Source: a virus (taxonomy: Duplodnaviria; Caudoviricetes). Taken from it: 25,741 nucleotides of DNA. Under the pieces are notes generated by a model. That model was not told where the DNA came from. It saw only the letters and a list, made by a program, of their open reading frames with translations, and searched no databases. Both the position numbers and the translations under genes were made by a program. Shown here piece after piece: positions 3,358-25,332 of the stretch. The first letter of the stretch is position 1. Every line of letters begins with the position of its first letter. The stretch is taken from IMG/VR virus record IMGVR_UViG_3300033141_000111, positions 1-25,741 of that record. One strand, given 5' to 3'.

Positions 3358-5112
3358 ATGAATATAAATTATAATACTAATAGCGCTTTTCCCAATCAGG
3401 TGGTACCTTTGGAGGAAAAATTAAGTATGAAGTATGGTAGTCAGGTTGCTGATGCTATACAATCAGAATGGTTTGCGCAAGGTAGAACTAATGGAAATAG
3501 GTATTTAACAACCTTTAACAATTATCACACTCGTAGATTATATGCTAGAGGTGAACAATCAACTCAAAAATATAAAGATGAATTATCTATAAATGGTGAT
3601 TTATCTTATTTAAACTTAGATTGGAAACCAGTGCCTATATTATCTAAATTTGTAGATATACTTACTAATGGTATTTCTAATAAAGATTATGATATAAAAG
3701 CTTATGCTAATGATCCTATGTCTGTTAAAAAGAGAACAGACTACGCTACTAGACTAGCTATGGATATGTATGGTCAAGATATTATAGAAGAAGTAAAAGC
3801 TACTACAGGACAAGATATATCACAAACAAATATACCAGCAGTTGATCTTCCTAAAACAATGGAAGAAATGGAACTTCATTTACAACTATCTTATAAACAA
3901 TCAATTGAGATAGCTGAAGAAGAAGCAATAACACAAACGTTAGATAAAAATAAATACGATTTACTTAAACGTAGGTTAAATTATGATCTAGTTACATTAG
4001 GTATTGCAGCTGCAAAAACAAATTTCAATACAGCTGAAGGTATAACTTTAGATTATGTTGATCCTGCTTATATGATTTATTCATATACAGAAGATCCTAA
4101 TTTTGAAGATATATATTATGTTGGAGAGGTTAAAGCTGTTACTATTCCAGAAATAAAACAACAATTTCCAAACATATCTGATGACGCGTTAGAAAAAATT
4201 CAAAAGTCTTATAGTAATAATAATTATATTTACGGTTGGGGTGCTTACGATGAAAACACTGTTCAAGTTTTATATTTTGAATATAAGACTTATATGGATC
4301 AAGTATTTAAAATAAAACATACAGATCAAGGTTTAGAAAAAGCATTAGAAAAACCAGATACTTTTAATCCACCAGAAAGTGATAATTTTAATAAAGTTTC
4401 AAGAAGTGTAGAGGTTTTATTTGAGGGTGTAAAAGTGTTAGGAACAGATATGATGCTTAGCTGGAAAATGGCTGAGAACATGACTAGGCCATTAGCTGAT
4501 ACAACTAAAGTAGAAATGAATTATGCTATTTGTGCACCTCGTATGTATAAAGGTAGAATAGAATCTATTGTTAGTAAAACTATAGGTTTTGCTGATATGA
4601 TACAATTAACTCATTTAAAACTACAACAGGTTATAGCTAGAATGGTTCCTGATGGTGTATTCTTAGACATGGATGGGTTAGCGGAAGTTGATTTAGGTAA
4701 TGGAACTAATTATAATCCAGCTGAAGCATTAAACATGTATTTTCAAACTGGTTCTGTAGTTGGTAGATCACTTACTCAAGATGGTACTATGAACGCTGGT
4801 AAAGTACCTGTTCAAGAATTATCCACCTCTTCAGGTCAAGCTAAAATAGGTTCTTTAATAAATACCTATAATTACTACGTACAAATGATACGGGATGTAA
4901 CAGGATTAAACGAAGCTAGAGATGGTAGTTTACCAGATAGAGATACTTTGGTTGGTTTACAAAAAATTGCAGCTCAACAGTCTAATATAGCGACTAAGCA
5001 TATTAACAATGCTAGTTTATATTTAACGTTAAGATTATGCGAGAATATATCTAAAAAATTAGTTGATGTTCTTAATTTTCCATTAACAGCTATGATTTTG
5101 GAATATTCTTAG
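3358..5112 (+). CDS. Portal protein, N-terminal part (reading frame broken near 5090)
   Basis: Abuts terL (TAAATG). Portal-like content: LNLDWKPVPILSKFVD, IRDVTGLNEARDGS. The last residues MILEYS* look out of frame. Confidence 0.85.
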   Translation: MNINYNTNSAFPNQVVPLEEKLSMKYGSQVADAIQSEWFAQGRTNGNRYLTTFNNYHTRRLYARGEQSTQKYKDELSINGDLSYLNLDWKPVPILSKFVDILTNGISNKDYDIKAYANDPMSVKKRTDYATRLAMDMYGQDIIEEVKATTGQDISQTNIPAVDLPKTMEEMELHLQLSYKQSIEIAEEEAITQTLDKNKYDLLKRRLNYDLVTLGIAAAKTNFNTAEGITLDYVDPAYMIYSYTEDPNFEDIYYVGEVKAVTIPEIKQQFPNISDDALEKIQKSYSNNNYIYGWGAYDENTVQVLYFEYKTYMDQVFKIKHTDQGLEKALEKPDTFNPPESDNFNKVSRSVEVLFEGVKVLGTDMMLSWKMAENMTRPLADTTKVEMNYAICAPRMYKGRIESIVSKTIGFADMIQLTHLKLQQVIARMVPDGVFLDMDGLAEVDLGNGTNYNPAEALNMYFQTGSVVGRSLTQDGTMNAGKVPVQELSTSSGQAKIGSLINTYNYYVQMIRDVTGLNEARDGSLPDRDTLVGLQKIAAQQSNIATKHINNASLYLTLRLCENISKKLVDVLNFPLTAMILEYS

Positions 5113-5696
5113 ATCTTGAACCAGATGAAGAAGAAAAAGCTCAACTAGAACAAAACATCCAAGTTGCATTGCAATCAGGTGGTATTGATTTAGAAGACGC
5201 TATTGATCTTAGACAAATACGCAATTTAAAGTTAGCTAATCAAATGCTAAAACAAAAACGTAGATTAAAACAGGAAAGAGATCAAAAGGCTGCTCAAGCT
5301 AATATGCAGGCTCAAGCTCAAGCAAATGCAAAATTAGCAGAGCAAACAGCATTAGCTGAAACTCAAAAACAACAAGTTTTAGTTGATCAAAAAATGCAAT
5401 TAGAACAAGCCAAATCTCAATTTGAAATACAAAGAATGCAGGCTGAAGCTGAAATTAAACGACAGTTAATGGCTGAAGAGTTTAATTATAATGTTCAACT
5501 TGCTAAAGAAAAATTCTCTAGTGAAGGAAATAAAGAGAAAGAAATAGAAGATAGAAAAGATAAAAGAGCTAGAATAATAGGGACTCAACAGTCTCAAATG
5601 ATACAGCAGAGACAAAATGATGGAACACCTATCGATTTTGAATCTACTAATGATAGTTTAGGTGACTTTGGTTTAGAAGCCTTTGGTCCTAAATAA
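5091..5696 (+). CDS. Portal protein, C-terminal part (-1 frame continuation)
   Basis: Frame open from 5076 reads YDFGIFLDLEPDEEEKAQLEQNIQVALQSGGIDLEDAID... into a Q/A/E-rich coiled coil typical of podoviral portal barrels. There is no convincing independent start. Confidence 0.8.
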   Translation, partial: YDFGIFLDLEPDEEEKAQLEQNIQVALQSGGIDLEDAIDLRQIRNLKLANQMLKQKRRLKQERDQKAAQANMQAQAQANAKLAEQTALAETQKQQVLVDQKMQLEQAKSQFEIQRMQAEAEIKRQLMAEEFNYNVQLAKEKFSSEGNKEKEIEDRKDKRARIIGTQQSQMIQQRQNDGTPIDFESTNDSLGDFGLEAFGPK

Positions 5697-5721: not shown

Positions 5722-6960
5722 ATGTCAGAAGTAAAACCGACCGAAGAGGTCAAACAAGAAGGTGACTTTTCTTTAAAAGGAAAGAAAACAAAACCTAAAA
5801 AATTGGTTGACAGTTCAAAAGAACAACCAGTAAAAGTAGATTTAACTAAACCTGAAGCACAAGGAGAACTTGTAGAGGATATAGTTAAAGTTGATTTAAC
5901 AGATAAAAAACAAGAAAATGCCGTTCAAGCACAAGAGACAGATGATAGCAATGTTGTTATCGAAAAGCCCGAAAACAGTGGCGACAGCAAAGAAGTGGTT
6001 GAAAAAGTACGGGACACCGAAGAAAAACTAGAAAGTCCTTTACAAGAAATAACTGAAGAAGAAGTTGACGAAAAGACTATTGAGTTATATGAAGAAGCAG
6101 AGCAAGCTGTTAAAGATCAAGTTACACAAGGTAAAGAATTACCTGAAAACGTACAATCACTTGTAGACTTTATGTCAGAAACAGGTGGTACAATAGAAGA
6201 TTATGTAAGATTAAATCATGATTATTCTAATGTAAACGAAAAAGTATTATTACAAGAATACTATAAACAAGCTAAACCTCATTTAGATCAAGAAGAAATT
6301 AACTTTATTATGGAGGATAATTTTTCTTATGATGAGGAAATTGATGAGCCAAGAGAAATTAGAAAAAAGAAATTGGCTTTCAAAGAAGAAGTTGCTAAAG
6401 CTCGATTAGAGCTTGATGCTATGAAGGATAAATATTACCAGGAAATCAAGTTGAGACCTGGTGTTACCCAAGAACAGCAGAAAGCCACGGACTTTTTCAA
6501 TAGATACAAGCAGCAAGAAGAGCAAGCGAAAACCCTTCAACAGGATTTTAAAAAGCAAACTGAACAAATTTTTAACGACGATTTCAAAGGTTTTGATTTT
6601 AGTTTAGGTGAAAAAAAGTTTAGATATAAAGTTCAAAATCCAAGTGAAGTAGGTAAGTCACAGTTAGATGTTAATAATTTCATTAGTAAATACATTGATG
6701 AAAAAGGAGCTGTAACTAACCCTGCAGGTTATCACAAAGCACTTTATGCTGCAATGAATGCGGATAAAATCGCTAATCATTTTTACGAACAAGGAAGAGC
6801 TGACGGTGTTAAAAACGTTGTCGATTCTTCTAAAAATCTAAGTAGTGACAAGCCTAGGCAAGTTGCCGACGGAAACGTCTTTATAAATGGTTTAAAAGTA
6901 AAATCAATAAGTGGTTTGGATTCGTCTAAACTAAAAATTAAAAAACGAAAATTTAACTAA
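5722..6960 (+). CDS. Acidic head assembly or scaffolding-like protein (412 aa)
   Basis: Very E/D/K-rich, with a disordered N-terminus, coiled coil and basic C-terminal tip. Lies between portal and capsid genes. Confidence 0.65.
   Translation: MSEVKPTEEVKQEGDFSLKGKKTKPKKLVDSSKEQPVKVDLTKPEAQGELVEDIVKVDLTDKKQENAVQAQETDDSNVVIEKPENSGDSKEVVEKVRDTEEKLESPLQEITEEEVDEKTIELYEEAEQAVKDQVTQGKELPENVQSLVDFMSETGGTIEDYVRLNHDYSNVNEKVLLQEYYKQAKPHLDQEEINFIMEDNFSYDEEIDEPREIRKKKLAFKEEVAKARLELDAMKDKYYQEIKLRPGVTQEQQKATDFFNRYKQQEEQAKTLQQDFKKQTEQIFNDDFKGFDFSLGEKKFRYKVQNPSEVGKSQLDVNNFISKYIDEKGAVTNPAGYHKALYAAMNADKIANHFYEQGRADGVKNVVDSSKNLSSDKPRQVADGNVFINGLKVKSISGLDSSKLKIKKRKFN
5918..6031 (+). CDS. Overprinted +1-frame small basic protein MPFKHKRQMIAMLLSKSPKTVATAKKWLKKYGTPKKN (37 aa)
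   Basis: ATG after A-rich AGATAAAAAACAAGAAA; stop TAG at 6029-6031. The host frame uses rare C/G-ending codons across this span (GCC, ATC, AAG CCC, GGC GAC AGC, CGG GAC ACC). Confidence 0.55.
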   Translation: MPFKHKRQMIAMLLSKSPKTVATAKKWLKKYGTPKKN

Positions 6961-6976
6961 TTAAAACTTTTAAATT

Positions 6977-8434
6977 ATGGGAATTTTAAATCCACAATTT
7001 GGTACAATAGTTCCATCGCAGGTACAACAAACTCTTGCGAGTAACTATTTGACTTTTGACGGCGCTGCTGGTGGAAATTTCGCACAACAATACTTACCTG
7101 AGCTTTATGAGCAGGAAGTTGAAAGATATGGTAATAGAACTTTATCTGGATTCTTAAGAATGGTTGGTGCTGAATTACCAATGACGTCTGACCAAGTAAT
7201 CTGGTCTGAACAAAATAGATTACATATTGCATATGATAACTGTGCTAACGGTGGTGCTGCGAATACAATTACTATTCCAGTTGCTGCAGATATTAACAAC
7301 GTTGTTTCACCACAACAAACTATTGTCGTAATGGATGATTTTGGTGGTGAGTCAAAATGTTTAGTTGTTGATTCTGATTTAAGAACAGCTGCTGGGGGTG
7401 GTACTGGTGTACTTAATGTATTACCTTACGGTTCTGCTAGTTTAGCTACTGAAGGTCTTGTAGGTAACGTAAAGATATTTGTTTACGGTTCTGAATATCC
7501 AAAAGGAACAAACACTACAATCGCTCCTTCTGCTGCTGGTGTAGCTGTTGCTGGTAATGATTATCCAATCGCTACAGTAACTCCTGACTTTACTCAGTTT
7601 TCTAACAAGCCAATCATTATTAGAAGCCAATATTCAATCAATGGTTCTGACACTGCTCAGATCGGTTGGGTAGAAGTTGCTACTGAAGATGGTACTTCTG
7701 GATATTTATGGTATTTAAAAGCTGAGTCTGAAACAAGACTTAGATTTGAAGACTACCTAGAAATGTCTGTTGTAGAAGGTGAGCAAGTTGGTGCTGGTTC
7801 TGCTATTGCAAACGTAACAGGTACTGAAGGTTTATTTGCTGCTATTGAAGATAGAGGTAATGTACAAGTTGGATTCTCTGCTGGAACAGGTATTAGTGAC
7901 TTTGATGATATTCTTAGAAACTTAGATACTCAAGGAGCAATTGAAGAAAACATGTTATTCTTAAACAGAAATACTAATCTTGATTTTGATGACATGCTAG
8001 CTTCTATATCTTATGGAAATGCTGGTGGTACTGCTTTCGGTTTATTCGAAAACTCTGAGGAAATGGCATTAAATTTAGGTTTCTCTGGATTCAGAAGAGG
8101 TTCTTATGACTTCTACAAAACTGACTGGAAATACTTAAACGATGCTTCAACTCGTGGTGCTATGAGTGGACCTGCTTCTATTGAAGGTGTATTAGTTCCT
8201 GCTGGAACAAGTACAGTTTACGATCAGATTTTAGGTACTAACATTAGACGTCCTTTCTTACACGTAAGATATAGAGCGTCACAAGCTGATGATAGACGTA
8301 TGAAGTCTTGGTTAACTGGATCTGTTGGTGGAGCTTTCACTAGCGATTTAGATGCTATGACTGTAAACTTCTTATCTGAAAGATGTTTAGTAACTCAGGC
8401 TGCTAATAACTTTGTATTATTCAAAGGAGTGTAA
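6977..8434 (+). CDS. Major capsid protein (485 aa)
   Basis: Follows the scaffold-like gene, shows high-expression codon bias (TTC/AAC/TAC/GGT/GCT) and is followed by a strong hairpin. Motifs WSEQNRLH, FSNKPIIIRSQYSINGSD, TGTEGLFAAIEDRGN. Confidence 0.85.
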   Translation: MGILNPQFGTIVPSQVQQTLASNYLTFDGAAGGNFAQQYLPELYEQEVERYGNRTLSGFLRMVGAELPMTSDQVIWSEQNRLHIAYDNCANGGAANTITIPVAADINNVVSPQQTIVVMDDFGGESKCLVVDSDLRTAAGGGTGVLNVLPYGSASLATEGLVGNVKIFVYGSEYPKGTNTTIAPSAAGVAVAGNDYPIATVTPDFTQFSNKPIIIRSQYSINGSDTAQIGWVEVATEDGTSGYLWYLKAESETRLRFEDYLEMSVVEGEQVGAGSAIANVTGTEGLFAAIEDRGNVQVGFSAGTGISDFDDILRNLDTQGAIEENMLFLNRNTNLDFDDMLASISYGNAGGTAFGLFENSEEMALNLGFSGFRRGSYDFYKTDWKYLNDASTRGAMSGPASIEGVLVPAGTSTVYDQILGTNIRRPFLHVRYRASQADDRRMKSWLTGSVGGAFTSDLDAMTVNFLSERCLVTQAANNFVLFKGV

Positions 8435-18811: not shown

Positions 18812-19129
18812 ATGGGATATAGAATACCACCACCAGACTTTGTATTACCGCCTATGCAGATAAACGTTGCCGCAGAAATGGGTAGAACATTTGCTGCAGG
18901 TATAGACAAAATAGCGGCTTACAATAGAGAGCAAAAAGAAAAAGCTAAGAAGCTTCAAGATACTCAAAACGCTTTTAAGAATCAATTAATATTACAGCAA
19001 AATGAATTAAAGAATAGTTATTTTAAATCATTAGATAAAGCTGGTATAAATGATGATCCTGAAAAAGAAAATGAATTGTTTGATGTCAAATTGTTACTGA
19101 TTTTAAATCTTATTCTGAAAGTAGTTTAA
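18812..19129 (+). CDS. Internal virion or ejection protein, N-terminal part (frame break near 19085)
   Basis: Ejection-protein-like N-terminus with coiled coil. The tail VKLLLILNLILKVV* looks out of frame. Confidence 0.6.
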   Translation: MGYRIPPPDFVLPPMQINVAAEMGRTFAAGIDKIAAYNREQKEKAKKLQDTQNAFKNQLILQQNELKNSYFKSLDKAGINDDPEKENELFDVKLLLILNLILKVV

Positions 19130-20364
19130 CTCAAATGGGTGGGGTGTTAGCTGATTCAGAGCTTGTTCTTAATAATGATTACGTAGTAGTAGGAGATCCT
19201 ATGAATGGTGAGCAAATAAGCAACACGCTTGCATTACAAAATATAAATGGTGTTAACGCTAAAACATTTGATCCTAATGCTATAACAAGTAGAAAACTAA
19301 CTACTAAAGGCAATCAAAACGTGGTTACTTCTACTGTTAAAATACCTGTAAATTCTAATTATTTTAAAAAGGTAAATAAAGACGGAGGAGGAGATGGCGC
19401 AAATATAATACTACAAAATGGTGTAGACGCTGGAATTATTAAAACAGAAAATATAGATGGTAAGGATTACTATGTATTTAAAAGTGATATAAATGTTTCT
19501 AACTATTCTACTAAAGGTGGAATGGATTTAGTACAAGAAAAATTACCTACATTAAAATCTGATGACACGTTGACTGAATTAGGGTATTTACAATCTGATG
19601 GCGCATTTGCTAAAAGTTACGTTTCAAAAGATGAAGTTATAACTCAAGAAATTGAAAAAGATTTAGATGGTAATTCTACTGGATATAAAAAACAAGTAGG
19701 CTATAAGATTATAGACGTTGGATCTATGGTTGAAAATAAAGCTTATATAGACATGTTAAATGTTGAGTATGGTAGTGTTTTTAAAGATACGTCTAGATCA
19801 GAAGCTCAAAGACAACAGTATTTAGTTGATATAGGTATACCCATGAATCTTAAATCATTCAATAAGTTAACTGAAGCAGAAAGACAGCAAACCGTTACCG
19901 CGGCTATAGAAAGAAAAATGTGGACAGGTTATTTTCCTGCTAAATATAAATCATCAGGTAGACTACCTCAACAAGTTCAAGTGAAATTAGATGAATCTCC
20001 AGAAGGTGTGGCATTACTAAAGCAATTAAATGATATAGGTTATAAAAACCCTTCAACAGGAAAACTTTATAAACAAGGTGACTATGCTTATGTAATTAGA
20101 GAAGAGCAAAGCAGATCTATATCTGAGGATTCTACTGAAAGAATAGATGCTTACTCTGCTTTCTTGAAAAAATCAGATGAACAAATATTGAGTGACTTAG
20201 CAAGTATTCCTTTGTCAGTTTCTAATAGAGGAAGTTTTTACGCTAGAGATGGTAAAATATATTTGAACAAAGGTGGTGATGATCGTACAAACGATAAAGT
20301 AATTCCAATGAACATGTTTAGAGATGCTTTAACAACAGCTAGCTCTACAGAAAGAAATAAATAA
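19084..20364 (+). CDS. Internal virion or ejection protein, C-terminal part (-1 frame continuation; track start 19135)
   Basis: Frame opens at 19084 (CQIVTDFKSYSESSLTQMGG...) with normal codon usage upstream of the ATG at 19135. Confidence 0.6.
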   Translation, partial: CQIVTDFKSYSESSLTQMGGVLADSELVLNNDYVVVGDPMNGEQISNTLALQNINGVNAKTFDPNAITSRKLTTKGNQNVVTSTVKIPVNSNYFKKVNKDGGGDGANIILQNGVDAGIIKTENIDGKDYYVFKSDINVSNYSTKGGMDLVQEKLPTLKSDDTLTELGYLQSDGAFAKSYVSKDEVITQEIEKDLDGNSTGYKKQVGYKIIDVGSMVENKAYIDMLNVEYGSVFKDTSRSEAQRQQYLVDIGIPMNLKSFNKLTEAERQQTVTAAIERKMWTGYFPAKYKSSGRLPQQVQVKLDESPEGVALLKQLNDIGYKNPSTGKLYKQGDYAYVIREEQSRSISEDSTERIDAYSAFLKKSDEQILSDLASIPLSVSNRGSFYARDGKIYLNKGGDDRTNDKVIPMNMFRDALTTASSTERNK

Positions 20365-20370
20365 TATTAT

Positions 20371-23300
20371 ATGTACAAGTATAACGGAAACACGTATAGC
20401 TTAGAAGACTTAAAAATAGTTCTAGGTGTAGAAGAAATTACTCAAGATATTCTAGCTCAGTACGGTATAACTGAGGCAGAAGAAGAAGTTAAAATAGACC
20501 CACCAACTACAACAGTAGACGAAGTGGGAAAGAGCAACGATGTTGTAGAAGATGCGATTGCAACATCAGACGAAGAAAGAGCATCGATGTTGGAATTAGA
20601 ATTGGAGCGTATTTCATCGGAATTAGAAAAGATAGATCCATATAAAGACGCAGAAACAGTTACATATAAATCTTTTGGTGGTTATGAGCAGAAACAAATA
20701 GGTGTAGATAATGCTGCTTTAAAAAAAGAACAAGAGTTAAAAGAAAAAAGAAAGAAAACAAAAGACGAACTAGAAAGAGTTTTATTTAACATAGGTCCTA
20801 ATATAGATATACCAGCTACTTTAGTTAGTTCAGATGAGGAAGCTGTAGAAAAATATCTACGCCAACAAGTACCGTGGGCTAGGGTAGAACAAACAGACGC
20901 TGGCGATGGGGTTAATATATATATTGACGAAGATTTTTATGGTTTTGGTGAAGGTGAAATACCAGATTGGATGCAGAAACCTAGATCAGAAGGTGAACCT
21001 ATATATATAAATTTACAACCTAATACAGACGAAGGTAGAGAAATAGCTATTGATCAATTTAAAAGAATAAATGCGTTTGGTAATGCTTTAAGTCCAGACG
21101 CTAAAAGAGATTATACTTTAGATGTTGCTATAGCAAAAATGGAAGAACTTAAAGATCCTTCTGACTTAAATTATTTATTAAAAGGTACTGGTTATAGAAT
21201 CGATTATGAAAAAACATATAAAGATTCTGGCATGAAAACAAGAGAGGAAGACGATGCTATTATGCTTCCTGAACATAACTATGTTTTAGTAAAAGATGGT
21301 AGTGCAGAGACATTAGATTTTGGAATAGAAAATGATGGCGAACCTATTGTAGTAGCAAGTGATATAGAAGGTATAAGAACTACATTAAAAGATAATATTG
21401 TAGGTAGTGAATTGTATGAGACAATTATAAGTAATAACGCTTTTGAAGCTCAAAAAGATTTTCTACTAGCTAAACACGAAGCTCTTGAAAAAGAAAAAGA
21501 AAGAATAACAAATTCTCCAGATCTTACTTTAGATTATTTTGAAGATCAATTTGAAAAAGATTTACTAGAAGCTTTAGGTTATAAAAATAAAAAAGAAGCA
21601 TACCAAGACCCTAGCGTTAGACCTTTGCTAGATCACTTTAGTTCTTTAACAAAAGCCACAAGGCCTGGTGCTGTACCTACTTATGGTACTAATCTAACAA
21701 TGAAATTACTTAGGTTTTTAACAGGAACTGAAGAAGCATCAGAGACGGATAAAAGAAAAAACAGAATATCAGCTTATCAAAATCTTGGTGATTTACCTGA
21801 AGATTTACAACAAAGATTAATAGATGCTGGATTTGGAGGGGATAACTCTAAGTTTTTACAAGACAATATAAACAAATATGCTCATAATCAACTAATAAAT
21901 AAAAGTGATAAAATAATAGAGGGGGTTATGAAAAGAAGCGGTAATCAATCTCTTATTAGATTATCTCAAAGGTTTTTAGAAGTTGACGAAAATATTTTTA
22001 AAGAAGAGCTTGATAAAAAAGTAAAGACGGTTCAAAAAATAGATGATCAGTATAGAAAATTATTTGCTCAAAGAGGGAAGAATATTGAGAAGATGTTGCC
22101 AAAAGGTGCTGAGTTTGAAATATCAACGCTAGGTGGTGTTACTCAATTGAATTTAAAATACGATGGTGAATTAAACGAGTCTCAACAAAAAGCTTTCGAT
22201 AAAGCCCAAGACGAATTAATGGACTTACAGTATGTCATGGGTATTTATCAGCAAGATTATGCTGGTACTATGCGAAACATACAAACTGAAATTGCTGAAT
22301 ACTATGCTCAAGGTAGAGGTGTAGATGAAAGCACTTTTGATTTTGCTGCTAAAGATTATGACTTAAGTAGTATTTTAGCTAAAGATATTGGTGATAGTTT
22401 TAAAAGTGTTTTCTTAACCGTACCTACATTACTAGGTGAAGACAGTGCTGTATTAGAACAAGAGAGAATGAATCAGAAGAATCAACTCTTTGAAACAATG
22501 ATAGACTATGATGATGGTAATTTTTTAAGATATGCTATAAGAACTACTGGTCAACAGTCTGCTAATTTAACCTTAGCAATAGGTACAGCTGGTGCTGGTA
22601 GCGCTTTGGGTTTAACAAACGCTGTAACTAGAGTCGCAATAGGTACTACATTTGGTTTAACTAGTGGTACTCAAACGTTTAGAGATCTTAAAACTCAGCA
22701 GGAAATATACGACTACGCTGTATTGAAAGGTAAGCAAGCTGATAGAGCTTTACGTGAAGGTATAATAGGTCAATATGAACATACTCAAATAATGCTTGAT
22801 GTAAATAAAACTAAAGCAATGGGTAGACTTACTGATAATCAAATTATAGGAGCTAGCTGGGCAAACGGTTTTATAGAAGGTACAATTACTACAGCGGTAG
22901 GTACAGCTCCTAACTCTATAAAACTATTAAAAGATTTTAAAGCACCGACAAAATTAACTGAAATAGGTAAAAACTTATTTAAAAGTGATGTTACTAAGTT
23001 GTATAACTTTATTGGTAAACCAATTGGTCAAAGAGTTGGTGGTGAAATTTTAGAAGAAGAATTAATATATGGTGGTCAACAGTTTTTTACTGAGTATGGT
23101 ATACTAGGTAGAGACTTTGATTTAAGTAATTGGGATGATGTTGCTGTAGCTTCATTAGTAGTTAGTGGTGTTAGTCAAGGTCCTGGGGTTGGTTATTCTG
23201 GTATAATGACATATGGCGCAACTGCAAAATATGAATCAGCTATAAACAAGCTAAGAATAAACACTCAAAATTTAAACTCTATACTAGCAGATCCTAACAA

Positions 23301-25332
23301 CAACTTAACAGATAAACAAAGAAAAGATTTAATTTTTAGTATTGCTGAAAATTTAAAAGAACAAGGTTTAGAAACAGATAAGCTTTCTATTGATGTTATG
23401 AACTTAGGTTCTGATAATGTAAAAAGATTAATAGGTAATTCTATAATAAAACAAGACCTATTAAAACAAGCTGGGGTAACTCCTGACATGAATGATGTTC
23501 AACAAGCAGAGGTGTTAAACTCTTATAAAAAAAGTTTAAAAGAAAGTAATCCTCAAGCTTTAGAAGATTTTAATAATCAGCTAAATGCTATTGATACTCA
23601 AATAAACAATATTAAAAAGAAAGTTGAAAGTCCTGGTAGTTATAAAAGAGCTAAAGAATCTTTGGGTAATATATACAATGTATATGATGCTCAATATAAA
23701 AGAGAAGGTAGAGTTTTTGATAGTGAGTCAGATAAATTAGCAACAATTTTAGAAGATATTAGACAAGATATAAACACTTCTAACATAGATAAAGCTAAAG
23801 CAAATCCTGAAATAGCTGAAACCGTAGAAAATATAAGAGTAGATAAAGAAGGTAACGAACGCTACACTAAGTCCGGCGAAAGTGATAAGAGGTTTAAACC
23901 TTTAAACGACGCACAGAAAGACGCTATGTATTCCGATTTCGGTAGATTAATAACATTAAATTCTGCTAGAGGAGTTGCTAATAAAATAAACATAGAAACA
24001 TCTGTACAATCTATATTAGGCGATGATGTTAAACTAGAAGTTGCTAGTTGGAAAACTAAAGAAGATCTAGAAGCATTGTTAGAAAATGAAATAAAAGATA
24101 AACAAGAAAGATTAGATGCTTTTACTAAATTAAATGATGGTAAAGTATTTGGCTTAATTGTTGGTAATAAAATTATAACTCAAAACGAAAAGCAAGCTCA
24201 AGAAGATTTAGACAAAGGAATTGTAAGAGCTGGTACGGTTGTACTTCATGAATTAAACCACGCTATTGATGATGGGCGTATTAACACTGCTGAAGGTAAA
24301 TTAAACTACGCAACAAACTTATTTAAAGCTGCTAGCGAAAGTGATAACGCTCAATTAAAAGCTTTACATAGTTATACCATGAATTTATTAAATGGTATAT
24401 ACGGGCCAAGAGGAGAAACATTTGAAAACAGTGAAACATTTAGAGATGAATACACAAAGTATCTTCAAGAACAGGCTTTTGCTTATGAAGATCAACTACA
24501 ATTAGAAAAAGACGAGAGCAGTTTAATAAAAGCTTTTAACAGTATTACTACAAATGCTAATGCTTTAAACACACCTCAAAAAGCTTTAAACTACATGGTG
24601 GCTAATAACTCTGGATTTAGATCTGGTAAGTTAAGTAAAAAATCTCAAAATGCTTTAAAGAATAGAAAAGAAGGTGAACTTAAGTTTTCTGAAAAAAATA
24701 TAAATGATCTTGCTGTAAAGTATAAAGCTGGTGAATTAAATGCAGAGCAGACTATGGATTTCTATAATCAATATAGAAATACAGCGTTAGCAGCTATGGG
24801 CTTTGATACTCGTAAAGGTGATATACCAACCGACAAGGCTTTAGGTTTTGCAACCGATGCTTTCGGTAGAGTAACTAGAACTTACAAGCCAGAAGATGGA
24901 TCATTCACTAACTGGATATATAACACTATAGGTAGAGAAGGTAGAGCTAAAATAGGTCAAGAAATAGAACGTAAAAAAGCTACGTCACGTATTAGCGAAG
25001 CTCAAGAACAAACAAGGTTGAAGTCTACAGAAACTGCAGAAACAGGATTAGAACTAGAAGAAAGAGCCGCGCGTGAAAAGAAAGCCGAACTAAAACTAAT
25101 TAACCCGTTAAAGTCAAAAGAAGTTGCTAGAAATATAAAAGAGATTGAAGCTGCAGTTGCTATTACACCATCTAAAGCACCTATAGCTGACTTTAAGAAT
25201 ATATCTCAAGACTTCGGAGGAAAGGTTGCTAGTATAATTTTTAATGTCCCAGAAACAAAAATCACTGATGGCACTAAAAACCTTACTTACGCTAAAAAAA
25301 TTGTTGATGGTATAATGAAAAAGTTACTGTAA
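20371..25332 (+). CDS. Giant internal virion or polyvalent ejection protein with membrane-inserting segments, zincin HExxH and sigma-region-2-like segment
   Basis: 1653 aa. G/A/T-rich hydrophobic helices at about 22560-23220, VVLHELNH at 24238-24261 with a later DE (FRDEY), and RTYKPEDGSFTNWIYNTI. Continues in the -1 frame after about 25310. Confidence 0.75.
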   Translation: MYKYNGNTYSLEDLKIVLGVEEITQDILAQYGITEAEEEVKIDPPTTTVDEVGKSNDVVEDAIATSDEERASMLELELERISSELEKIDPYKDAETVTYKSFGGYEQKQIGVDNAALKKEQELKEKRKKTKDELERVLFNIGPNIDIPATLVSSDEEAVEKYLRQQVPWARVEQTDAGDGVNIYIDEDFYGFGEGEIPDWMQKPRSEGEPIYINLQPNTDEGREIAIDQFKRINAFGNALSPDAKRDYTLDVAIAKMEELKDPSDLNYLLKGTGYRIDYEKTYKDSGMKTREEDDAIMLPEHNYVLVKDGSAETLDFGIENDGEPIVVASDIEGIRTTLKDNIVGSELYETIISNNAFEAQKDFLLAKHEALEKEKERITNSPDLTLDYFEDQFEKDLLEALGYKNKKEAYQDPSVRPLLDHFSSLTKATRPGAVPTYGTNLTMKLLRFLTGTEEASETDKRKNRISAYQNLGDLPEDLQQRLIDAGFGGDNSKFLQDNINKYAHNQLINKSDKIIEGVMKRSGNQSLIRLSQRFLEVDENIFKEELDKKVKTVQKIDDQYRKLFAQRGKNIEKMLPKGAEFEISTLGGVTQLNLKYDGELNESQQKAFDKAQDELMDLQYVMGIYQQDYAGTMRNIQTEIAEYYAQGRGVDESTFDFAAKDYDLSSILAKDIGDSFKSVFLTVPTLLGEDSAVLEQERMNQKNQLFETMIDYDDGNFLRYAIRTTGQQSANLTLAIGTAGAGSALGLTNAVTRVAIGTTFGLTSGTQTFRDLKTQQEIYDYAVLKGKQADRALREGIIGQYEHTQIMLDVNKTKAMGRLTDNQIIGASWANGFIEGTITTAVGTAPNSIKLLKDFKAPTKLTEIGKNLFKSDVTKLYNFIGKPIGQRVGGEILEEELIYGGQQFFTEYGILGRDFDLSNWDDVAVASLVVSGVSQGPGVGYSGIMTYGATAKYESAINKLRINTQNLNSILADPNNNLTDKQRKDLIFSIAENLKEQGLETDKLSIDVMNLGSDNVKRLIGNSIIKQDLLKQAGVTPDMNDVQQAEVLNSYKKSLKESNPQALEDFNNQLNAIDTQINNIKKKVESPGSYKRAKESLGNIYNVYDAQYKREGRVFDSESDKLATILEDIRQDINTSNIDKAKANPEIAETVENIRVDKEGNERYTKSGESDKRFKPLNDAQKDAMYSDFGRLITLNSARGVANKINIETSVQSILGDDVKLEVASWKTKEDLEALLENEIKDKQERLDAFTKLNDGKVFGLIVGNKIITQNEKQAQEDLDKGIVRAGTVVLHELNHAIDDGRINTAEGKLNYATNLFKAASESDNAQLKALHSYTMNLLNGIYGPRGETFENSETFRDEYTKYLQEQAFAYEDQLQLEKDESSLIKAFNSITTNANALNTPQKALNYMVANNSGFRSGKLSKKSQNALKNRKEGELKFSEKNINDLAVKYKAGELNAEQTMDFYNQYRNTALAAMGFDTRKGDIPTDKALGFATDAFGRVTRTYKPEDGSFTNWIYNTIGREGRAKIGQEIERKKATSRISEAQEQTRLKSTETAETGLELEERAAREKKAELKLINPLKSKEVARNIKEIEAAVAITPSKAPIADFKNISQDFGGKVASIIFNVPETKITDGTKNLTYAKKIVDGIMKKLL
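20526..20585 (+). promoter_or_regulatory. Putative -1 programmed ribosomal frameshift signal (G_GGA_AAG plus H-type pseudoknot)
   Basis: In-frame heptamer 20526-20532, 6-nt spacer, stem 1 20539-20548 / 20558-20567, stem 2 GATGC 20551-20555 / GCATC 20581-20585. Confidence 0.75.
20532..20645 (+). CDS. -1 transframe segment EQRCCRRCDCNIRRRKSIDVGIRIGAYFIGIRKDRSI* (gives a 91-aa product with residues 1-54 of the giant gene)
   Basis: The -1 frame is open 20493-20645 with no ATG, GTG or TTG, so it is most simply reached by slippage. Confidence 0.6.
   Translation, partial: EQRCCRRCDCNIRRRKSIDVGIRIGAYFIGIRKDRSI

Follow-up and report, generated by a model that had tools for sequence, protein, structure and literature searches.

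Background

Genes nested within other genes are a known feature of phages. In lambda, the small gene Rz1 lies on the same strand as Rz and wholly in its +1 frame; separated forms of the pair occur in other phages, and Rz and Rz1 are fixed partners that act in one complex. Small basic proteins packed in the head together with the DNA are likewise familiar, examples being phiX174 J and the internal proteins of T4, where a capsid-targeting leader is carried by unrelated cargo. In phiX174, gene E is placed out of frame within gene D, which encodes the external scaffold. In PMC8227390, E is treated as the newer frame and the majority pattern is that of de novo frames in +1.

Here we describe a small basic gene of a tailed phage that invites comparison with each of these systems. 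Like Rz1, it lies wholly within the +1 frame of a larger phage gene and has separate forms elsewhere; unlike Rz1, it is found inside host genes of two or more unrelated kinds, and the stretch of host protein that it overlaps seems to be no more than a passive spacer. Its position resembles that of E within D in that the host gene is a putative scaffolding gene, a designation based on position and acidity only. Unlike E, the small frame is probably the older one by the same distribution criterion, against the majority pattern. The comparison with phiX174 J and the T4 internal proteins is a functional analogy only, searches with the nested peptide having returned no sequence or fold match. Nested phage genes are known; what appears to be new is the family itself, unnamed and very large, together with its repeated +1 nesting in virion genes that are unrelated to one another and a genealogy that is probably reversed. 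A literature search that included full text for MPFKS returned no description of the family; it covered mostly open literature, and a 2022 small-gene survey or closed supplements may list the family. The family has no assigned function and is testable in cultured phages whose hosts are harmless.

The locus and its setting

The window, that is the whole stretch of 25,741 nt that was analysed, is a 25.7-kb virus record (IMGVR_UViG_3300033141_000111) about 42 % complete. Its genes include GroES, terminase, portal, a 412-aa acidic gene, a likely major capsid gene, tail genes and a giant gene; the features around the nested gene are collected in Table 1. The capsid assignment, which we consider likely, follows from position and size. 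Homologues of the 412-aa gene in cultured phages belong to Flavobacterium phages in 68 of 79 records, the others being Cellulophaga, Tenacibaculum and Maribacter phages and one uncultured record, and Elemovirus shows an identical gene order. On the strength of these carriers and of the Elemovirus gene order, the host of the phage is likely to be a marine member of the Flavobacteriia.

Table 1 Features at and around the nested gene, in coordinates of the window
Feature	Position	Strand	Remarks
Portal gene	3358..5696	+	upstream of the 412-aa gene; two ORFs in the window; phrog_6547 on both pieces
Host gene, 412 aa	5722..6960	+	codons 66-103 overlap the nested gene; conserved domain ~136-412
Leader of the nested ATG	5898..5917	+	A-rich, A at -3; predicted fold -0.6 kcal/mol (41-nt window), essentially unstructured
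Nested gene, 37-aa basic mini-protein, type A of the MPFKS family	5918..6031	+	ATG to TAG; +1 relative to 5722-6960
Virion structural gene	6977..8434	+	downstream of the 412-aa gene; phrog_13704, head and packaging, E 3.8e-86

The portal is a single protein of 800-810 aa in all 51 relatives with enough flank, and the window is without 70 nt near 5090 that are present in the otherwise near-identical L001 and L002; the split of the portal gene is thus likely an assembly artefact. A 105-aa ORF directly precedes a 409-aa ORF at 18812-20364, the two together matching one Elemovirus gene slot, and the giant gene (20371-25332) ends at 1,653 aa, just short of the record end; both may be further assembly breaks. 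A 232-codon alternative-frame ORF (1409-2107, +) lies within the more GC-rich part of the terminase gene.

The initial annotation of this DNA had pointed to a 37-aa +1 ORF, rich in Lys and devoid of Asp and Glu, behind an A-rich leader with A at -3, and every part of this description was confirmed (10 Lys, 1 Arg, no Asp or Glu). It had also remarked on odd codons in the host frame over the interval. This is borne out by an adaptation index of 0.425 in the overlap against a mean of 0.718 (11 of 381 other 38-codon windows are equally low); codon adaptation of the +1 frame is low as well, at 0.297, a value matched by 4 of 381 windows. When the host gene was recoded synonymously at random, a +1 ATG ORF of at least 37 aa appeared somewhere in 423 of 5000 runs and at this very site in 86 of 5000, and the 13 genes of the window contain six such +1 ORFs. 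Because of these recodings and these six ORFs, the bare existence of the ORF is weak evidence. Another +1 ORF, at 6065-6166, was discarded as it is not conserved in relatives.

The 412-aa host protein matches no family. In Elemovirus and other Flavobacteriia phages, homology to it extends over residues ~135-387, which is outside the overlap.

Conservation and selection

Conservation was assessed in the best 80 of 348 scaffold relatives in IMG/VR. As the initial annotation had proposed to check, start codon and frame are kept in most scaffold homologues: the nested ORF is intact in 71 of the 80, as type A in 53 (at three of these loci the host ORF was incompletely recovered), type B in 8 and type C in 10. 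The nine exceptions are of several kinds, with the start changed in L013 (plus a stop) and L048, an internal stop in L035, L036 and L072, an in-frame deletion in L051, and a replaced segment with a host protein 10-20 aa shorter in L027, L033 and L045. No second copy was found in the five of these nine that were searched, whose records are only 16-37 % complete. Since it is lost in relatives, the gene would be accessory or dispensable. A frameshift fusion of scaffold and peptide is unlikely, as +1 stops lie a few codons 5′ of the ATG in the intact relatives shown.

The pattern of substitution in the overlap is the reverse of that in the rest of the host gene. Among 42 distinct type-A genes, pairwise differences at host codon positions 1, 2 and 3 are 0.274, 0.074 and 0.050 in the overlap, compared with 0.11-0.19, 0.05-0.13 and 0.23-0.38 in six other regions of the host gene; in each of the six, as in every 19-codon window clear of the overlap, variation is highest at position 3. 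Amino-acid difference over the overlap in the same genes is 0.08 in +1 versus 0.32 in the host frame. For 33 distinct type-A sequences, pN/pS over the overlap is 0.088 in +1, 1.91 in the host frame and 1.32 in +2, with these ratios, like the codon-position figures, being pairwise counts on related sequences and not independent events. With a pS of 0.53 in the +1 frame, divergence is ample, and the pN/pS of 0.088 at this pS shows that selection is on the protein rather than on the nucleotides. Within the overlap, purifying selection acts on the small protein while the host frame drifts.

It had been cautioned that a GAA-rich frame automatically yields a Lys-rich +1 frame. The caution holds for the existence of the ORF, as the recoding shows, and fails for its conservation, which exceeds chance. 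On these comparisons of sequence the nested ORF is almost certainly a real gene.

A large family of small phage proteins

The initial annotation had likened the peptide to small phage proteins that begin MPFKS.KQ and suggested a homologue search. Stand-alone homologues of the form MPFKS..Q do exist. Profile searches gave 25 short homologues at first and then 1,169 short proteins of 20-126 aa at E<=0.001 among 2,025 candidates, with source names that, where shown, are all 'hypothetical'. M1, P2, F3 and Q8 are invariant in the alignments, and the nested peptide bears the family marks (the M-P-F start, Q8 and the Trp of the second helix); it matches the family profile at E 1.7e-11, a profile of which it is itself a row. 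Extrapolation from a pattern scan of 6 of 64 parts of IMG/VR estimates ~7,600 viral stretches with the family, and 68 Flavobacterium phage records match. Stand-alone copies are found in FlowerPower and 023Pt_psg01, where they are annotated as hypothetical, and in S-CBS2, P-RSP2 and C75C1, where they are unannotated. Five larger records (63-85 % complete) have one copy each.

Resemblance to catalogued families is slight. The nested peptide has no Pfam, NCBIfam or PHROG match, with only DUF1391 and SpxO below threshold. PHROG 1375, of unknown function, is weakly matched by 16 of 28 family members (best E 7.2e-05, profile positions ~17-46); unlike the MPFKS family, it has no recorded nested form, and the peptide of the window itself does not match it. 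Using family member P0009 as query, the ESM Atlas returned unnamed clusters of 45-52 aa (0.90-0.94) and a DUF3008 cluster at 0.78, which is a lead only. Matches to Arthrobacter SprT were not significant (E 2-9).

The genomic layouts of the family were compared in the best 80 of 428 loci confirmed from the pattern scan. The gene is not nested in 45, nested in a giant gene (a frame of more than 1,200 codons) in 20, nested in a scaffold homologue in 10 and doubtful in 5, the last class consisting of short or GC-rich frames; one of the scaffold-nested loci, L096, is the same contig as L058. All 20 giant-nested copies are in +1. A +2-type frame is open in three loci, each time beside an open +1-type frame. 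The 20 giant hosts fall into six similarity groups with a GC content of 0.32-0.63, and no Pfam family was found in 9 of the 11 giant hosts scanned from these loci. Among the giant frames (L118 3297-8885, L125 2940-9782), one has a histidine phosphatase domain (E 2e-22) and another a sub-threshold zincin-type match, as in the large polyvalent proteins of phages. In cultured or complete records, Elemovirus elemoC and MW202828 have copies of 42 and 43 aa in +1 within giant structural genes, both missed in annotation, and no copy within codons 1-150 of the scaffold homologues of these phages.

Actinophages have a remoter branch whose members are extended at the N-terminus, with 486 records that match Barnyard gp9. 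Like the family, the group of Barnyard gp9 and Patience gp10 has the core F.SK.Q..W....K..A..W and sits just after the portal gene; it differs in that a basic extension precedes the core and the proteins do not begin with Met-Pro, and it is stand-alone. Barnyard gp9 scores 22.7 bits against the family profile, with none of 2000 shuffles as high, and Patience gp10 3.6 bits, with 14 of 2000 as high; the homology of Patience gp10 to the family is marginal, being linked through Barnyard gp9. In PMC4324244, Patience gp10 is listed as a virion protein; its gene follows that of the portal, in company with genes of other small basic proteins of the particle. Table S1 gives it one particle spectrum together with 4 and 2 in infected cells; gp111, gp11 and gp12 have 30-33 particle spectra each. 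Runs of very small Arg/Lys-rich genes lie behind the portal at 6726-7789 in Patience (L180) and 5805-6153 in Barnyard (L087).

Expression of the nested gene

Twenty-four distinct leaders of nested copies carry A at -3 in a fraction of 0.92 and at -6 in 1.00. Bacteroidetes use A at -3 and no Shine-Dalgarno sequence, according to PMC6847099. The leader of the window copy is likely to be a Bacteroidota-type initiation region without Shine-Dalgarno sequence, although the Lys and Glu codons of the host would by themselves also give an A-rich leader. For the giant-nested starts, a Shine-Dalgarno match of at least 5 bases precedes 5 of 20, compared with 33 of 1,595 other +1 ATGs in the same genes; 13 of the 20 are without a Shine-Dalgarno match. 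A 211-nt metatranscriptome contig of a relative, from one of three confirmed RNA runs, spans 5836-6046, and contigs of this kind cannot show transcription or translation. Very probably ribosomes initiate at the nested ATG itself on the late head transcript; the low codon adaptation of the +1 frame speaks against this.

Structure, neighbours and possible function

The peptide is predicted to fold into a two-helix hairpin (H6-13 and H18-31) with a basic tail, at a pLDDT of 89 from an alignment of 92 rows. Searches with this fold against the PDB gave nothing significant, with a best Foldseek E of 1.3 and a best Z of 3.6 (a 37-residue hairpin), and PDB sequence searches gave chance matches only (best split match E 0.06, others above E 0.4). 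Prediction of a complex between the peptide and the likely capsid protein scored 0.00 in both runs and counts neither way. Two candidate identities found no support in the sequence, namely an embedded o-spanin of the Rz1 type (the peptide is without Cys or a hydrophobic signal as in lipoproteins, and it lies in an acidic gene of the head module) and a capsid stabiliser of the Patience gp4 type (gp4 is not reported by the family profile, and there is no PDB sequence match).

Neighbours were scanned at 47 of the 50 non-nested or doubtful loci, for 148 of 171 neighbouring ORFs. A named neighbour was present at 28 of the 47 loci and absent at 19; terminase, portal, scaffold or capsid genes account for 14 of the 28, tail genes for 2 and a lysis gene for 1, these being raw counts without a base rate, and half of the named neighbourhoods (14) are not head genes. 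The family also occurs as a module of longer proteins. Of 156 longer homologues the best 120 were compared, and 114 of these carry it N-terminally, on 60 partner clusters; a profile that starts with Met may bias toward such N-terminal matches. The named partners, few in number, include a lysozyme, a head morphogenesis domain of the MuF type and a domain also present in a minor head protein, most partners having no named family. Many partners in the fusion proteins (P0027-P0146) have short repeated helices right after the module that end in L/I-x-E, shared by a cluster of 39; we take these ends to resemble T4-type prohead protease sites.

From the head-gene neighbours and the N-terminal fusions, we tentatively favour, at a little under even confidence, an accessory DNA-binding internal head protein. 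The N-terminal helical hairpin and the Lys tail would bind nucleic acid, the protein, made alongside head proteins, would enter the prohead, and once packed it would help to neutralise or organise the packaged DNA. Across such different phages nucleic acid is the more likely common target, over a particular head protein; basic charge alone does not distinguish a DNA, RNA or membrane target. The initial annotation had suggested a DNA- or scaffold-binding head assembly peptide; a role specific to the scaffold is made doubtful by the nesting of the family in giant virion genes and its stand-alone occurrence in unrelated phages.

An assembly role of a wider kind, which we think unlikely, would make the product a protein-binding factor of the head, one that either pairs with scaffold or portal or acts, as Patience gp4 does, as a cement on the inside of the capsid, with the fused module serving as a cargo-loading tag for the prohead. 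It would account for the nesting in a scaffold-like gene between portal and capsid, for the frequency of portal and terminase neighbours, and for the strict N-terminal placement on 60 partner clusters, as in a targeting leader. Yet the family is conserved among phages with unrelated scaffolds and capsids, neither Patience gp4 nor a chain in the PDB matches it significantly in sequence, and the gene was lost in several lineages. The same conservation across phages of very different hosts with unrelated head proteins would suit a conserved target in the host cytoplasm, most likely the ribosome or rRNA, where the product would tune late translation. The size, charge and aromatic residues of the peptide do resemble those of small ribosome-binding proteins. 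Patience gp10 spectra are, moreover, more numerous in infected cells than in particles in PMC4324244. We nevertheless regard an action on the ribosome as improbable: ArfA (PF03889) has no match at E<=1 in either of two sets of aligned members, 19 and 28 in number, its profile finds nothing in this record while the E. coli control is positive, and a role in the virion is the better fit to the lysozyme and MuF-type fusions and to the neighbours from the head module.

That the peptide is a cationic lysis accessory active on membranes is very unlikely. We would liken such a protein to disruptin gp28 of phage phiKT; the second helix is amphipathic and basic, FlowerPower gp48 sits between peptidase and holin genes, and one of 28 members has a sub-threshold match to Ponericin. 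However, of the 28 named neighbourhoods just 1 has a lysis gene, the invariance of the M-P-F..Q core points to a specific fold, and the family extends to phages of hosts without a Gram-negative outer membrane. Least probable, and strongly disfavoured, is that the ORF is a side effect of the GAA-rich codons of the host gene and is not translated, or that it is the remnant of a decaying gene, retained for a reason at the RNA level. The 423 of 5000 recodings with a +1 ORF of such length, the loss in 9 of 80 relatives and the decayed partial copies in the Elemovirus giant gene are what it would predict, and it is opposed by the +1 pN/pS of 0.088 at a pS of 0.53 and by the clear homology to stand-alone genes.

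Origin of the overlap

The initial annotation had described the small gene as overprinted in the host gene. This was not supported, since the small gene has the wider spread and the host-frame segment looks like its by-product. Under de novo overprinting the nested frame would be the narrower one; it is not, with 1,169 short homologues outside, versus scaffold homologues that, among cultured phages, are nearly all in Flavobacteriia phages. Because of this far wider distribution, the small frame is to be considered ancestral by the criterion of frame age in PMC8227390. Of the 45 non-nested copies, 37 have stops within the first 40 codons of the frame that begins one base earlier, but that frame still reads like the host segment, and an opening of the form DAVQ, NAVQ or DAIQ is common to the host segments of scaffold-like and giant genes. 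In all likelihood, then, the small gene is the older frame and was captured into a floppy acidic linker rather than overprinted.

Capture of this kind would be possible where Lys-rich codons, read one base earlier, give a spacer rich in Glu, Gln, Asp and Ala, which a disordered linker would tolerate once its stops had been purged; recombination could afterwards swap or delete the cassette. A quick tree of 67 scaffold cores places type B among type A and requires four changes for it, at least three forced by well-supported branches, while type C forms one clade and the more distant relatives are B-like. This distribution fits exchange and deletion of a cassette by recombination, though these phages recombine generally. 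If the small gene is the older, it would be a clean, repeated case of an overlap that originated by capture and not by overprinting, and the recurring acidic DAVQ segment of scaffold-like and giant phage proteins would be its shadow.

A broader reading, possible but distinctly doubtful, is that the MPFKS module serves tailed phages in general to load heads and bind DNA, either as a mini-protein by itself or as a tag at the N-terminus that takes dozens of unrelated cargoes into the capsid, and that its gene is a nomadic cassette that lands repeatedly in the disordered linkers of large virion genes, its shifted frame making new host-gene sequence. Were this true, overprinting would be reversed across thousands of phages, and a head-loading tag would have practical use.

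The Elemovirus giant gene (L082, NC_062743) contains three copies, one possibly decayed, one a 5′ fragment and one intact, at host codons ~883, 1089 and 1221. The fragment and the possible decayed copy lie upstream of the intact one, which suggests internal duplication. The intact peptides of Elemovirus and MW202828 contain a Cys pair.
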